A stretch of 64,000 bases of DNA from a virus. The notes beneath the pieces were generated by a model. That model saw nothing but the letters and a program-made list of their open reading frames with translations, was not told the origin of the DNA and searched no databases. The stretch spans positions 2,427 to 66,426 of IMG/VR virus record IMGVR_UViG_3300032307_001129; one strand, 5' to 3'. Position numbers and translations under genes: made by a program. Shown here in pieces: positions 18,982-24,747 of this stretch. Position 1 is the first letter of the stretch, and each line of letters opens with the position of its first letter.

Positions 18982-19839
18982 ATGAAACATTCAGAAGTAT
19001 TAAGTAGATATGTAAATTCAGGAAAACATATACCAGAAGAACAATATGAACGTTTAACAACAGTATTAAAGAAATCTTATCTTAGAATAAGAAGTGTTGC
19101 CGGTTTTAAAGATTGGGAATATGAATTTATAAGTGATAATCAAAGAATTAACTATATTGAAAAAAAAGGTGTAAAATTAGAAAAAGATGACGCAAAGGAT
19201 TTACTTAAATATTCAATTAATAAAGACCTTATTGCAACAAAAATTATTGATGTAAAGGGTGAAAATTTGAATTATAACGATATAAATAATTTACTTAAAT
19301 ATTCAGAGAATAAAGATGATATTGCTACAAAAATTATTGATGTAAAGCGTGAAAAATGGAATTATACCGATGTAGACTTTTTACTTAATTATTCAATTAA
19401 TAAAGACGTTATTGCGAAAAAAATTATTGATGTAAAAGGTGAAAAATTGAATGTTTATGATATAGTAAAATTAGTTACTATTTTAAAAGATAATGAATAT
19501 TATATCATACCTTTTATTTTAAAAATTATTGATGTAAAAGGTGAAAAATTGAATGATTTTGATATACACCATTTACTTGAACACTCGGATAATAAAGATA
19601 AAATTGCAATAAAAATTATCGAATCAAAAGGTGAAAAATTAAATGATTATGATATAAACCAATTAATTAAACGTTCAGAAAATAAAGAATTAATAAAGAA
19701 AACGTTATTACAAAATGGTGTTGATTATAAATTAATAAATGATGTAATAACAAGTTATAATATAGATACCCCATTAATACCAGACGATTACCAATCAATG
19801 TTACAAGAAATAAGAAGGATTAAAGAGATAATGATATGA
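18982..19839 (+). CDS. 30-aa repeat protein, paralog 1 (6 repeats)
   Basis: IDVKGExLxxxDIxxLLxYSxNKDxIATKI repeats. Confidence 0.85.
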   Translation: MKHSEVLSRYVNSGKHIPEEQYERLTTVLKKSYLRIRSVAGFKDWEYEFISDNQRINYIEKKGVKLEKDDAKDLLKYSINKDLIATKIIDVKGENLNYNDINNLLKYSENKDDIATKIIDVKREKWNYTDVDFLLNYSINKDVIAKKIIDVKGEKLNVYDIVKLVTILKDNEYYIIPFILKIIDVKGEKLNDFDIHHLLEHSDNKDKIAIKIIESKGEKLNDYDINQLIKRSENKELIKKTLLQNGVDYKLINDVITSYNIDTPLIPDDYQSMLQEIRRIKEIMI

Positions 19840-20510
19840 AACATTCAGAAGTATTAAGTAGATATGTGAATACTGGACAACGAATACCAGAAAAACAATT
19901 TGACCGTTTAACACCAGTATTAAAGAAGTCTTATCTTAGAATGAGAGGGGTTGCCGTTAATTATTCTCGTTGGGAATTTAAAGTGATAAGTGATATTCAA
20001 AGAATCAATTATATTGAAAAAAAAGGTGAAAAGTTAGACCATATAGAAATAGAAGATTTACTTAAATATTCAGTTAATAAAGATGATATTGCCACAAAAA
20101 TTATTGAAGCAAAAGGTGATACATTAAATAATGATGGTAACAGTTATTACTTTTTACTTGATTATTCACAAAATAAAGACCTTATCTCAACAAAAATTAT
20201 TGAAGCAAAAGGTAAAAAATTAGATAGTAACGAAATATTCTATTCACTTAAATATTCAGTTAATAAAGATGATATTGCAACAAAAATTATTCGCACAAAA
20301 GATGAAAATTATAAAAAAATAGATATATCTTATTTACTTCAATTGTCACATAATAAAGAAATAATAAAAAAATTATTGTTACAAAAAGGTATTGATTATA
20401 AATTAATAAATGATGTCATAACTAATGATGATATAGATATCCCATTAATACCAGACAATTACCAATCAATGTTACAAGAAATAAGAAGGATTAAAGAGAT
20501 AATGATATGA
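19836..20510 (+). CDS. 30-aa repeat protein, paralog 2 (4 repeats)
   Basis: Near-identical termini to its neighbours; ATGA overlap. Confidence 0.85.
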   Translation: MKHSEVLSRYVNTGQRIPEKQFDRLTPVLKKSYLRMRGVAVNYSRWEFKVISDIQRINYIEKKGEKLDHIEIEDLLKYSVNKDDIATKIIEAKGDTLNNDGNSYYFLLDYSQNKDLISTKIIEAKGKKLDSNEIFYSLKYSVNKDDIATKIIRTKDENYKKIDISYLLQLSHNKEIIKKLLLQKGIDYKLINDVITNDDIDIPLIPDNYQSMLQEIRRIKEIMI

Positions 20511-21256
20511 AACATTCAGAAGTATTAAGTAGATATGTGAATACCGGTACACAAATACCAGAAAAACAATATGACCGTTTAACACCAGTGTTAAAGAAGT
20601 CTTATCTTAGAATGAGAAGGGTTGCAGGTTATGACGGTTGGGAATTTAAATTTTTAACTGATGATGAAAGAATAAAATCTATTGAAAAAAAAGGTAAAGA
20701 ATTACTTCAAAATGAAATAAATTATTTACTTTATAGTTCAAATGATAATGACCTTATTGCAACAAAAATTATTGATGTGAAAGGTGAAAAATTGAGTCAT
20801 TATGATATATATCATTTAGTTAAACGATCAAAAAGTATAGATAATATCGCAATAAAAATTATTGAAGTAAAAGGTGAAGATTTGGATTATAATGATATAC
20901 ATGAATTAATTCATTATTCACGTAATAAAGACCTTATTGCAACAAAAATTATTGATGTAAAAGGTGAAAAATTGTGGTCACAAGAAATAAAAATTTTACT
21001 TCAATATACTTCTGAAAACATTGAAGTAAAAATAATTCAAACAAAAGAAATTAAATTAAGTAAAATCGATATAAATAATTTACTTACATATTCAAAAGAT
21101 AAAGAATTAATAAAGAAATTATTATTACAAAAAGGTATTGATTATAAATTAATAAATGATGTAATAACAAGTTATAATATAGATACCCCATTAATACCAG
21201 ACAATTACCAATCAATGTTAAATGAGATAAAAAGGATTAAAGAGATAATGAAATAA
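20507..21256 (+). CDS. 30-aa repeat protein, paralog 3 (5 repeats)
   Basis: Near-identical termini to its neighbours; ATGA overlap. Confidence 0.85.
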   Translation: MKHSEVLSRYVNTGTQIPEKQYDRLTPVLKKSYLRMRRVAGYDGWEFKFLTDDERIKSIEKKGKELLQNEINYLLYSSNDNDLIATKIIDVKGEKLSHYDIYHLVKRSKSIDNIAIKIIEVKGEDLDYNDIHELIHYSRNKDLIATKIIDVKGEKLWSQEIKILLQYTSENIEVKIIQTKEIKLSKIDINNLLTYSKDKELIKKLLLQKGIDYKLINDVITSYNIDTPLIPDNYQSMLNEIKRIKEIMK

Positions 21257-21262
21257 ATATTT

Positions 21263-21424
21263 TTAATAAAAATATACTATCACATTACATTCATTAAATA
21301 ACTTCATACTTTTTTCTTGAGATTCTTCCCATTTCTCTTTATTCTTTGTTGTACATTCTTTTTTACACCAAACGACTTGTATCCCCACATTTACAATGGC
21401 TCGAGCACAGTCCATACAGGGTAC
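21263..21424 (-). pseudogene. orphan 3' fragment of dCMP deaminase
   Basis: Reads VPCMDCARAIVNVGIQVVWCKK...WEES...FNECNVIVYFY*; 23/53 identical to the C-terminus of 22306-22746; preceded by an in-frame TGA. Confidence 0.9.
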
Positions 21425-21435
21425 TCAAATGACAG

Positions 21436-22284
21436 TTAACTACGTTCAATATTCCAATTATATCCTAAATAGTTAGAATTGGATATTATTTTTCTTTTAA
21501 AAGTTGTTAATGGTATTTTAAAATAATTAGAGGCAGATTTGAAAGATTCAAAATGTAAACTTTCGTGTTGATTTTCAATATTTATCGAAACACTATCACC
21601 TAAACTTTTATTTAATGTATCAATCATTTTTTTAAATTCATTATATTTTTCCCATTTTCTTTTTAGATATATTGATGAGTCTTTATATAAAAAATCTAAA
21701 AATTTATTTACATTCCTATTACCACAAATCCTTAAATCAAATATATTTTTTTCATCTTTATACCTTTTTGATAAGTTACATTTAATCTTTAAATTATTAT
21801 AAATAAAATCACTAAAAAAATTAAAAAATTCAATTGTACAACAAATATTTATTGTAGAATTAAATGTATTTCTTGTTTTATAAAATGTAATTGATCCATC
21901 ACCATCATAATATCCCCTTAAAAAATGTATTAATAGATTATTGTTTATTTTATCAAGTTTATTTGGGGTTGCGGTTAAACTTTTATTTTGATTGACTCCC
22001 AATTTTTTTAAATCATTTACTATTTTTTTTCTTGTTATTAATAATCGATATTGATTTTTAGTGTTTTTTTCTTTTCTTTTTATTAATTGTAATGGTTTAT
22101 TAGTATTAATAGAAGTTTTTAATTTTTCTAAAATATCAATATCATTATACTGTAGTGTTAATGACATATAATTTCTTTTCTCATTTAAATATCCATCGGC
22201 AAAAATAATACCTAAAAAATACGATTTTTCTTCATTATCTATATCCTCAAAATATTTCTCATTAATTTCATAAAATGGTTTCAT
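21436..22284 (-). mobile_element. free-standing double-motif LAGLIDADG homing endonuclease
   Basis: YFLGIIFADGYL and HFLRGYYDGDGSI; C-terminal NUMOD1-like HTH (FESFKSASNYF). Confidence 0.9.
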
Positions 22285-22305
22285 ACTATATAAATATACT
22301 CAATT

Positions 22306-22746
22306 TTAATAAAAATTTAATTTTATATTACATTCTTTAAACATTTCTAATGTTTTCTTTTTGGATTCAATCCAATGATTTCCTTTAACATCATCTTCGA
22401 TATTTTTACAAAAAACTTCCACAATACCACTATTAATTATTAATTTAGCACAATCTGAACATGGAACACCACAAGTCAAATATATTTTTGAGTTTTTTAA
22501 TGAAACACCAATTCTAGCTGCGTTAACAATTGAATTTGCCTCAGCATGAATCATCCAAAAGTATTTTTCAGGTCTTTCCTGTCTTTCTTTTATGGTGTCG
22601 TCTAAACCCCTCGGAAATGAGTTATATCCTGTCGATAAGACTTCATTATCCATACCAACAATAATAGCACCTATTTGTGTTGATTCGTCTTTAGACTTCA
22701 ATTTTATCTGTTCTGCAATGTTTAAAAAATATTCGGTCCAGTTCAT
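22306..22746 (-). CDS. cd: dCMP deaminase
   Basis: SKD...GAII, STGYN, HAEAN, PCSDC zinc motif. Confidence 0.93.
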   Translation of the reverse strand: MNWTEYFLNIAEQIKLKSKDESTQIGAIIVGMDNEVLSTGYNSFPRGLDDTIKERQERPEKYFWMIHAEANSIVNAARIGVSLKNSKIYLTCGVPCSDCAKLIINSGIVEVFCKNIEDDVKGNHWIESKKKTLEMFKECNIKLNFY

Positions 22747-22940
22747 GATAATTTTTGTTTGGATATATAATGTAGTTTGTTGTTTTGGTATAAACCAATA
22801 TTTTGGGCAATACCTTTTTCTACTAATTTACCTATTTCAGTAAAACTTTTGGTATCGTTTAATGAAATTCCAATAATGAATTTTTCATTATCAACTTTTT
22901 CGTAAGTTACTGGTTTTATGATTTTACTTTGGTCTTCCAT
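22743..22940 (-). CDS. hypothetical protein
   Basis: 65-aa ORF coupled to the deaminase; TATATTTG upstream. Confidence 0.55.
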   Translation of the reverse strand: MEDQSKIIKPVTYEKVDNEKFIIGISLNDTKSFTEIGKLVEKGIAQNIGLYQNNKLHYISKQKLS

Positions 22941-22951
22941 TTTTTTTAATG

Positions 22952-22959
22952 CAAATATA
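22952..22959 (-). promoter_or_regulatory. Bacteroidota-type -7 promoter element (TATATTTG)
   Basis: Matches TAnnTTTG, 12 bp upstream of the 22940 start. Confidence 0.5.
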
Positions 22960-22974
22960 ATAATTAAAATTAAT

Positions 22975-23006
22975 AAAAAAAGGGAATCCCTTTCGAGATT
23001 CCCTTT
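22975..23006 (-). terminator. intrinsic terminator after the major capsid gene
   Basis: AAAGGGAATC...GATTCCCTTT stem with U-tract on the minus strand. Confidence 0.8.
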
Positions 23007-23028
23007 ATATGTTTAAGAGTAATTAATA

Positions 23029-24747
23029 TTATCTTAATGTTTCAGTTCCAAATGTAGTCAAACCAAATACGTCAATTACACCATAGTAACGGTTATTAAC
23101 CATTTTCTTTGCGTAACGAGTCATAATACCCTTAATTGGGGTAAAGTTAAATGGGTTATACATAGTTGGAGTCAACTGTAATGGTACGTAAGGTGCGTAA
23201 ATATAACCTGCGTCCAATAATGATTTTCCTTTATGACCAATCATAATTTTACCTGCTGGTAAATATGGGTCACGGAATACTTGGTAACGACCAGCTAATG
23301 AACCAATTTTCTCAATACCCATGTTGTATTGGTCTTGCTCAGGATGTGCGTTTGATACGTGGAAATATTCCAAATCATCAAATACTGCAGATACTTCAGA
23401 AGATACTACAACCCAGTTAGCTCCACCACGAAGAGTTGTCTTGTGGATTTGTGCTGAAATTTGGTTAATTTTGGTTACCAATGTTTGGTTCCAATCTTTT
23501 TGAGTATAACCCAAGAATGGTGTATTACCAGTTGCACCATATCTCCATTCATTATAATCCCACTTGCTTCTCCATGCAGCACCCTTACGGATATCACGAA
23601 GAATTTCACGGTCGATTTCTGCAGCAATTTGTTCAGACAATAAAGCCGTTAATTCTGCCTCAGCATCGATATTATGGAATGCAGATACGTCTTGAGCAAG
23701 TTCAGGAGACCAGCTAGCCCTTAACTTTCTTTCAGTAACTGATACAGTTACAGACTGAAGGTCAAATGATACTTCACCAATTTCTTCTTCAAATTCTAAA
23801 GATGCATATGTTTTATAAGTAATCTTAAAATTAGCAATTGCTAAGTCGTTAGAACTAAAATCAGAACCTGCAAATCCTGTAGTTGCGTCATAAGTTTCTA
23901 GATCTACACTTAAATAGATTTTTCCTTCTTCATCACAAATATCATTATATTTTTCAAGATTCGATCCAGATTTTTGACCGTATTCAATAAGACCTTTACC
24001 ATATTTTTGTGTTACAACATTAAAGTTTTTAACACCATTATTACCTGTGGTATTTCCAGTAATTTCAACAGATAATGAAGCTAAAAATTCCTCGGTATCC
24101 ATAACGTTTCCATCGGCACCAACTAATTTACCTTGTCCAGCCTTTGTAAAACCACTTACAACAACAATTGCATTAGATACTGACGCACCACTTAAAGCGG
24201 TTGTAGTTTCTGATGGTACACCACCACTAAAAGTAACAAATGCAAATGGTGTGGTAGTTGTAACAGTTGCGGTTCCTCTTGAATAATCAAAAAGACCTTG
24301 GTCAGCTGAGTCACTCTCTTCATAAAAACGGTCATAAAGACTTCTTGTAGAAGTGTAACCAGCAGCAGGGTCAGTTTCGTTACTTGGATAACCGAAAGGT
24401 GCTGCTTTAGTATCTTGAATTTTAGGTACAAAGAAGAACAATTTACCAATAGGTAAATTCATCGCTTGTACAGACACGATATCGTTAGCTAACAATTTAG
24501 AAAACACCCTACGAATGATAGGGAATACAACTGTTTCAAATGAACCACTTGCGTCAGAAACCGCAGCTTCGTTAATTAAATAACTTGCTTGGTTTTCATA
24601 TAATTGTGCTACGTTATCTTTTTGGTGACCGTCAAGTCCTTCTAGGAAACCGAGGTCGTTCCATTTTTTAATGGTATCTTCTTTGATAACACGTAGGTGT
24701 TTTAAACCAATGTTACCAACCATACCAGATTCTAATAATGCTCCCAT
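23029..24747 (-). CDS. gp23: major capsid protein (T4 gp23-like)
   Basis: VSVQAMNLPIGKLF, RKLRASWSPELAQD, AEIDREI, YAPYVPLQ, GIMTRY. Confidence 0.97.
   Translation of the reverse strand: MGALLESGMVGNIGLKHLRVIKEDTIKKWNDLGFLEGLDGHQKDNVAQLYENQASYLINEAAVSDASGSFETVVFPIIRRVFSKLLANDIVSVQAMNLPIGKLFFFVPKIQDTKAAPFGYPSNETDPAAGYTSTRSLYDRFYEESDSADQGLFDYSRGTATVTTTTPFAFVTFSGGVPSETTTALSGASVSNAIVVVSGFTKAGQGKLVGADGNVMDTEEFLASLSVEITGNTTGNNGVKNFNVVTQKYGKGLIEYGQKSGSNLEKYNDICDEEGKIYLSVDLETYDATTGFAGSDFSSNDLAIANFKITYKTYASLEFEEEIGEVSFDLQSVTVSVTERKLRASWSPELAQDVSAFHNIDAEAELTALLSEQIAAEIDREILRDIRKGAAWRSKWDYNEWRYGATGNTPFLGYTQKDWNQTLVTKINQISAQIHKTTLRGGANWVVVSSEVSAVFDDLEYFHVSNAHPEQDQYNMGIEKIGSLAGRYQVFRDPYLPAGKIMIGHKGKSLLDAGYIYAPYVPLQLTPTMYNPFNFTPIKGIMTRYAKKMVNNRYYGVIDVFGLTTFGTETLR

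Follow-up and report, generated by a model that had tools for sequence, protein, structure and literature searches.

The deoxycytidine monophosphate (dCMP) deaminase gene of a freshwater phage, carried on the minus strand of a 64,000-nucleotide stretch of viral DNA (positions 2,427 to 66,426 of the IMG/VR virus record IMGVR_UViG_3300032307_001129; this whole stretch is hereafter called the window), is very probably the site of a homing element of the gene-end-replacement type. The mobile unit consists of a foreign 3′ end of the deaminase gene, beginning at about codon 88, together with a free-standing gene for a LAGLIDADG endonuclease, and we propose that this cassette entered a deaminase gene like that of an endonuclease-free relative, locus L004, just before the codons of the PCxxC motif. 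We call the gene end now in use, which starts with VPCSDC (V94 to Y146, 22467-22309), tail A, and the one that starts with VPCMDC and lies as an orphan beyond the endonuclease gene, tail B. On the minus strand of the window, a 65-codon open reading frame (ORF; 22940-22743) is followed by the deaminase gene, a spacer, the endonuclease gene, 11 nucleotides (nt) and the orphan (Table 1). The layout and coordinates that an initial annotation, made from the sequence alone, had given for the deaminase tail, the LAGLIDADG gene and the orphan 11 nt past its stop proved correct.

The deaminase matched Pfam PF00383 with 71.2 bits (cut-off 25, E 7.2e-20) and the PHROG family of dCMP deaminases at 3.7e-38, and we read the motifs H67-A68-E69 and P95-C96-x-x-C99 from its translation; by these matches it is a member of the zinc-binding dCMP/cytidine deaminase family. 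The gene is complete without the orphan, and the exact chimeric protein is recorded on 19 contigs. When the two tails were compared with each other by BLASTP, as a single comparison, the orphan aligned to deaminase residues 94-146 with an E value of 1e-14, 23/53 identical and 34/53 similar residues and 0 gaps. Judged from this alignment, the similarity of the two tails is far beyond chance, and it bears out the colinear, gap-free pairing reported at the outset. The orphan alone had no Pfam match. It is directly preceded by an in-frame TGA and ends 6 nt from the end of a converging gene.

A deaminase scan of viral contigs yielded 80 related loci (L001-L080), which we searched with four queries, namely the N-terminal part of the deaminase (N part), tail A, tail B and the endonuclease. 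The endonuclease was found in only two of the 80, L002 (76% amino acid identity) and L003 (66%), both of which have tail A. Tail A-type ends occurred in three loci, L001 (92%), L002 (91%) and L003 (74%), and a tail-only alignment scan for further ones gave only L001-L003 again. As the initial annotation had expected of endonuclease-free relatives, which were to match the orphan, 75 of the 80 loci (L004-L078) have a full-length tail with a better score to tail B than to tail A, and none of them gave an endonuclease match. The tail of L079 is frameshifted and that of L080 is ended by the contig edge. In L079 (4001-4401) a frameshift or short deletion follows about residue 104, with the remainder in another frame; either a broken gene or an error in sequencing could account for it.

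The closest relatives, L004-L006, are endonuclease-free; their N part is 93.5% identical to that of the window, their tail is identical to the orphan at 52/53 amino acids, and their flanks match the window at 94-98% DNA identity. L004 aligned to the window in two blocks, a 4154-nt one ending at 22447 (94.3% DNA identity) and a 948-nt one beginning at 21426 (97.7%), and only the cassette is missing between them. Relative to L004-L006, the window thus carries a 1043-bp insert. At the nucleotide level the orphan is identical to L004 at 157/159 positions, without a frameshift or an internal stop; it is the native end of the gene, and the claim that the ancestral tail had been stranded is upheld. 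We also built separate trees from gene nt 1-192 and from the tails, with L001-L078 and the window included and L079 and L080 excluded. The N-part tree placed the window beside L004-L006 (98% identity). In the tail tree, the orphan fell into a five-member clade with L004-L006 and L014, with a Shimodaira-Hasegawa-like approximate likelihood ratio test (SH-aLRT) support of 100, while tail A fell into a four-member clade with L001-L003 (SH-aLRT 99) and is separated from all other tails by 2.2 substitutions per site or more. The separate trees suggested initially therefore group the N part and the orphan with L004-L006 and tail A with L001-L003, and tail A is foreign to the gene that it now completes. 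The earlier proposal that the element brought in a diverged replacement 3′ end agrees with both the insert and the separate clade.

The same site is found filled and empty in metagenome assemblies. Run X1 contained a 2141-nt contig identical to 21201-23300. In run X2, which belongs to another study, a 2138-nt contig spanned 21191-23300 with 16 substitutions and one indel relative to the window, and in run X5, from a third study, a 498-nt contig (21198-21695) bridged the junction between the orphan and the endonuclease gene. The empty allele was present in run X9, from a fourth study, where a 996-nt contig joins 21422 to 22466 and skips 1043 nt. This empty-site contig differs from the window at exactly 22522-22558, where it has L004-type bases. 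The same run also contained zero-difference contigs of the endonuclease gene (21652-21831) and of the junction between the endonuclease gene and tail A (21991-22389), so that presence and absence of the cassette are polymorphic at one site, with both alleles in a single run. The substitutions of the X2 contig are unevenly spread, 1/1043 cassette positions against 15/1067 flank positions (Fisher p 5e-4), which fits a cassette shared more recently than its backbones. In the RNA runs X17-X20, only 0.06-0.17 of the sampled words were present.

The deaminase gene itself is a mosaic, which we mapped by the sites that distinguish L004 (recipient type) from L001 (donor type). L004 is followed at 34 of the 36 sites in nt 12-186, and L001 at 10/13 sites in nt 195-221 (codons 65-74, around the HAE motif); further on, 9/10 sites in nt 231-255 follow L004 again, and from nt 260 to the stop 69 of the 77 sites follow L001. 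The recipient-type block encodes the peptide GVSLKNS, which is present in 0/15 other tail-A-type deaminases. Patchy conversion tracts are the expected product of heteroduplex repair after a double-strand break. The initial annotation had put a breakpoint at the PCxxC motif, which is accurate for the right-hand junction, just before the PCxxC codons (gene nt 278), but a single breakpoint is absent, since donor-type sequence starts upstream of it, from about nt 260, and recurs as a separate patch at nt 195-221. The ratio of nonsynonymous to synonymous substitution rates (dN/dS) of tail A is 0.08-0.19, and by this measure the gene end in use is under strong purifying selection.

The endonuclease matched Pfam PF14528 (LAGLIDADG_3) in two stretches with 39.8 bits (cut-off 22.5) and the endonuclease family PHROG 4645 at 1.1e-50. 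Its LAGLIDADG motifs lie at residues 23-31 and 122-130, each with a conserved acidic residue at its end, as in the single-chain type. Among 56 aligned sequences, G25, D30, G31, G124, D127, G128 and G130 are invariant and D129 is at least 90% conserved. We built a structural model on the alignment of the 56 relatives (predicted local distance difference test score, pLDDT, 93.2; predicted template modelling score, pTM, 0.84) and compared it with the PDB by Foldseek, which gave 141 matches at E ≤0.001 and the two-domain alpha-beta-beta-alpha-beta-beta-alpha fold of solved monomeric LAGLIDADG enzymes. The best matches were I-Tsp061I, I-OnuI variants and I-AniI (probability 1.00, E 4e-9 to 1e-7, template modelling score 0.45-0.53). 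Sequence identity to the solved enzymes is 11-20%, and a phmmer search of the PDB sequences with the endonuclease found none at E ≤1. The gene is intact in three lineages diverged to 66-76% amino acid identity, and its dN/dS of 0.25-0.29 indicates that it is under purifying selection. In the protein database we found 18 clusters of full-length relatives (50-99% identity) and one truncated form of 157 residues. A single-protein scan for further loci with a close endonuclease found only L002, and alignment scans, run on viral and metagenome contigs, contributed L003 and otherwise only distant relatives (33-40% identity), none of which adjoins a deaminase.

Some further features of this endonuclease family may be recorded here. 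The last approximately 55 residues of the window's enzyme (about 228-282, window 21436-21600) form a small strand-and-helix module of high model confidence. Distant relatives lack this module, covering only 73-80% of the query, and several of them have helix-turn-helix domains, such as PF02796, in its place; the C-terminal part is probably an extra DNA-binding module. Two distant LAGLIDADG relatives, P0087 and P0096 (425 and 409 amino acids), also contain a dUTPase domain (PF00692); they may represent either inteins or endonucleases fused in frame within another gene of nucleotide metabolism. The truncated copy of 157 amino acids (P0035), which is 70% identical over 56% of the query length, and the tail-A deaminase cluster P0013 have longest contigs of equal size (5235 nt), and the pair may be a decaying copy of the cassette. 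For 6 tail-A deaminase clusters and 6 endonuclease clusters the longest contigs are equal in size, which hints at shared contigs and falls short of proof.

The loci with tail A appear to represent other stages in the history of the cassette. In L002, the endonuclease stop is directly followed by a stretch reading NECGVEVFFY-stop, which is identical at 26/33 nt to the last 33 nt of the tail of the endonuclease-free L037 and is continuous with a syntenic downstream gene. A more decayed relic occupies the same place in L003. Judged from these alignments, both loci retain a relic of a native tail beyond the endonuclease gene, of which only the last 11 codons or so are left, and both have a spacer similar to that of the window 5′ of the endonuclease gene. 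As the orphan of the window differs from L004 at only 2/159 nt and has neither a frameshift nor an internal stop, the invasion there is more recent than those of L002 and L003. In L001, both the endonuclease and the orphan are absent; tail A is its only tail, and the sequence past its stop resembles that of L004. Over its first 190 nt L001 is closest to L014 (96.8% identity; next best 86.8%), while over its last 251 nt it shares 90.8% identity with the window; tail-B loci reach at most 71% there over comparable lengths and exceed this only in short segments. With an L014-like 5′ part and a window-like 3′ part, L001 is thus a second, independent chimera. It is the only endonuclease-free relative with a VPCSDC-type tail, a combination that the initial annotation had named as speaking against it; L004-L078 have the other type. 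We read the tail of L001 as the result of endonuclease loss or of conversion without the endonuclease: the endonuclease gene and the orphan could have been lost via recombination between the similar tail ends, or break repair could have copied the tail only.

Table 1. Positions of the cassette, its junctions and the tracts of the mosaic deaminase gene in the window
Feature	Positions	Strand	Remarks
dCMP deaminase gene, chimeric	22746..22306	-	146-amino-acid ORF; stop 22308-22306
Recipient-type 5′ part	22746..22553	-	gene nt 1-194; 98% identical to L004-L006 over 192 nt
Donor-type patch around the HAE zinc/catalytic motif	22552..22522	-	gene nt 195-225, codons 65-75
Recipient-type block between the donor-type tracts	22521..22486	-	gene nt 226-261
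Donor-type 3′ part	22485..22306	-	tail A preceded by about 18 nt of apparently co-converted sequence
Spacer, deaminase stop to endonuclease start	22305..22285	-	21 nt, read from the sequence
LAGLIDADG homing endonuclease gene, free-standing, two-motif	22284..21436	-	282-amino-acid ORF
Right-hand junction	21435..21425	-	11 nt between the endonuclease stop and the orphan
Orphan native tail B	21424..21263	-	53 codons and stop, separated from its gene
Insert relative to the empty site	22465..21423	-	1043 bp: tail A, spacer, endonuclease gene, junction

We infer from these comparisons that the cassette spreads by cleavage followed by homing repair, rather than having arrived in a single illegitimate event. 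The endonuclease would cut an endonuclease-free tail-B allele near codons 89-96, and the break would be repaired from a cassette-bearing genome present in the same co-infected cell. Such repair would bring in both tail A and the endonuclease gene and co-convert patches of the sequence further upstream; the native tail B, lying beyond the break, would be left as an untranslated orphan. Because the PCxxC zinc ligands and the C-terminus come with tail A, the enzyme would stay whole. The filled and empty alleles differ at 7/22 bases around the junction (gene nt 264-285), and for this reason the new allele is presumably no longer cut. The orphan could act as a second homology arm, available as downstream homology in later rounds. 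It would decay over time, as in L002 and L003, and the endonuclease may also be lost, leaving a chimeric gene as in L001. Since the 11-nt junction has no clear template, its first formation probably involved an illegitimate join.

Several observations weigh against a gene-end-replacement homing element and have to be set beside those that favour it. The runs were compared at the level of contigs, and bins of low or zero depth were given no weight; X1 may be the window's own source sample, and the contigs of X2 and X5, which have most of their deviations from the window in common, represent one second haplotype. Four tail-B loci have less than 900 nt of downstream flank, so that an endonuclease gene may lie beyond the contig end there, and L001 combines tail A with the absence of the endonuclease. 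The nearest cassette outside the window's own lineage, that of L002, has only 82% DNA identity. Compared with that of the window, the junction of L002 and L003 sits about 125 nt deeper in tail B, either because the orphan was deleted there or because the junctions arose separately. The 11 nt at the right-hand junction are not explained by simple homologous repair, and they align to the L004 codons upstream of the tail only with small indels. A junction formed via a five-base microhomology was rejected as well, as it needs extra indels and is indistinguishable from chance. Finally, the junction lies outside the peak of DNA conservation of the gene. The most conserved 22-nt stretches start at nt 158-167, just before the first donor-type patch, while those starting at nt 262-270 rank 186-235 of 309, and we rejected the most conserved DNA of the gene as the place of insertion. 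As the junction is only average in this respect, the rule invoked in the initial annotation, that homing endonucleases target conserved coding sites, is not borne out here at the DNA level.

The only rival with some weight is that the arrangement is the fossil of one illegitimate recombination, now merely inherited, with an endonuclease that no longer drives its spread. The untemplated look of the 11-nt junction suits this explanation, as do the lack of a donor with the same junction among 80 + 13 + 52 loci and the small number of close endonuclease relatives in contig collections. We nevertheless consider it unlikely. A fossil endonuclease would hardly be intact in three lineages at 66-76% amino acid identity, with a dN/dS of 0.25-0.29 and conserved motif residues, nor would a merely inherited cassette be expected to be near-identical (1/1043) on backbones that differ at 15/1067 positions. 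The occurrence of filled and empty alleles in one run, and of a second independent chimera with a similar left boundary in L001, also speak for a mobile cassette.

Phage homing endonucleases are often located in group I introns, and this general knowledge favours a self-splicing intron, whose removal would join the N part to the VPCMDC tail in the mRNA, the VPCSDC stretch then being read-through intron sequence. However, no Rfam family, and hence no intron family, matched in 20800-23200 at E ≤10, except for an irrelevant small RNA at 22.4 bits (cut-off 54). Tail A is moreover a true homologue of the deaminase tail under strong purifying selection, L001 has tail A alone without an endonuclease, and most of the would-be downstream exon is gone in L002 and L003, all of which makes splicing very improbable. 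An intein is ruled out by the stop codon, the 21-nt spacer and the endonuclease's own ATG, and splicing blocks are absent. The initial annotation was thus right to see neither an intron nor an intein, the endonuclease being a separate ORF. We give hardly any credence to a local tandem duplication of the gene's 3′ end, followed by divergence in place and a later landing of the endonuclease between the copies. Such an origin would account for two colinear and adjacent tails, yet the orphan is identical to L004 at 157/159 nt, tail A is 94% identical to L001 and at most about 62% identical to tail B over nt 271-405, and the tails belong to different, well supported clades, so that divergence in place cannot explain the pattern. 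A chimeric assembly of two co-occurring strains seems just as far-fetched. Both alleles do occur in one sample, the setting in which assemblers make chimeras, but the 2138-nt contig of X2 covers the whole arrangement in another study, the 498-nt contig of X5 bridges the orphan-endonuclease junction in a third, and no repeat that might misguide an assembler is common to the right-hand junction and the endonuclease-free allele.

A wider proposal built on the homing of this cassette is possible and at present rather doubtful. It holds that gene-end replacement is a live and general route by which free-standing endonucleases enter essential phage genes without splicing, that a sweep of the cassette through the large phages of a lake is now under way, and that the HAE patch was co-selected with the foreign PCxxC tail instead of being repair noise, because both halves of a zinc site have to be compatible. 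If such co-selection were true, an endonuclease would be the driving force by which the active site of an enzyme is rebuilt in co-adapted modules.

The record from which the window comes is 66 kb long, has an estimated completeness of 21% and is classed as a provirus in IMG/VR. The window encodes a T4-like major head protein, a portal protein and a large terminase, and related contigs are up to 333 kb long. The runs that contain the window sequence are lake and other aquatic metagenomes. A blastn search of GenBank phages with 20500-23500 gave no match. The promoter scan returned 23 sites against 20.1 expected, and the terminator scan found no terminator-like site between the deaminase and endonuclease genes. 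A strong two-way terminator-like hairpin (22979-23006; 12 pairs followed by a T run), one of 3 terminator-like sites found against 0.1 expected, sits in the gap that separates the major head gene from the small ORF ahead of the deaminase. On the plus strand, 18982-21256 holds three tandem paralogous genes (285, 224 and 249 amino acids), each beginning MKHSEVLSRYVN, with internal repeats of about 30 residues and without a Pfam or PHROG match. The copy number of this family is 1 in L004, 3 in the window and at least 5 in L001.

The window has the sequence features of gene-end replacement, namely a 3′-adjacent endonuclease gene, two 3′ ends, a native orphan, a foreign tail and polymorphism. This design is already documented for fungal mitochondria and yeast nuclei, and the window is a phage instance of it; in the literature searched, which left most subscription journals outside its coverage, we did not find a phage case. 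Related phages display most stages of a homing life cycle without an intron or an intein: the empty site, a fresh invasion with the native end intact, old invasions with that end decayed to 11 codons, and an endonuclease-free chimera. The cassette explains how an enzyme of phage nucleotide metabolism came to be a mosaic of two lineages, and single-gene trees as well as gene calls near such cassettes will mislead. With filled and empty alleles in one sample, the locus also lends itself to measurements of homing and co-conversion in virus populations in nature.

The mobile endonuclease ORFs (mORFs) of fungal mitochondria form hybrid genes in Allomyces macrogynus (atp6), Glomus sp. (atp6, atp9, cox2 and nad3), Rhizopus (atp9) and Mortierella (cox2) (PMC3630166). 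There, a LAGLIDADG or GIY-YIG ORF lies near the 3′ end of a conserved gene and is preceded by a foreign, in-phase C-terminal copy, and the native C-terminus, about 1 kb downstream, matches that of an element-free close relative, the inserted copy being phylogenetically foreign (PMC3630166). The window likewise has an inserted foreign gene end and a native end stranded beyond the endonuclease gene, and its inserted end has its own stop, as described for Glomus cox2 and atp9 (PMC3630166). It differs in its host, a bacteriophage, in its target, a dCMP deaminase, and in the patchy donor-type sequence upstream of the junction. Its endonuclease has an ORF of its own, set off from the deaminase by a stop and 21 nt, whereas that of the Allomyces and Glomus atp6 hybrids is fused in phase. 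Expression and cleavage were examined experimentally in the fungal cases, while the window is known from its sequence. Partial gene duplications beside free-standing LAGLIDADG genes are also described for the mitochondria of Pyronema and Phlebia (PMC7487136).

The WHO elements of Torulaspora and Lachancea yeasts, which target FBA1 and are neither introns nor inteins, are similar in outline (PMC7282813). Their endonuclease gene lies downstream of the target, homing swaps the 3′ end of the target for an allele that is resistant through sequence differences, and duplicated 3′ fragments beyond the endonuclease gene, intact or decayed, are proposed as a second homology arm (PMC7282813). An endonuclease gene 3′ of its target, replacement of the gene end and a 3′ fragment beyond the endonuclease are all found in the window. 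In contrast to the window, the WHO enzymes are intein-derived and have a zinc finger, they act in a nuclear genome with homing at meiosis, and they form arrays of several genes and pseudogenes (PMC7282813). Their cleavage site and their resistant and sensitive alleles were proven by experiment, where those of the window are deduced (PMC7282813).

In T4-like phages, intronless homing is driven by free-standing endonucleases such as SegB and MobE (PMC2330249, PMC2790892, PMC2988022). As is proposed for the window, the free-standing gene adjoins the gene that is cut in endonuclease-free relatives, and spread occurs in mixed infection with co-conversion of flanking markers, to which L002 and L003 look similar. 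SegF with gene 56 and SegG with gene 32 are reportedly further cases of T4-like intronless homing. The neighbouring sequence is replaced and not duplicated in the T4-like systems as described in these sources, which leaves no stranded duplicate, and their enzymes are of the GIY-YIG or HNH type, whereas that of the window is a LAGLIDADG enzyme. A word search of the T4 review gave no occurrence of 'duplication' (PMC2988022). The endonuclease of the window shares its fold and motifs with the intron- or intein-borne enzymes I-OnuI, I-AniI, I-Tsp061I and the Tli VMA intein endonuclease. Unlike them, it is accompanied by neither a ribozyme nor intein blocks, and its host gene is kept intact by a spare gene end and not by splicing.

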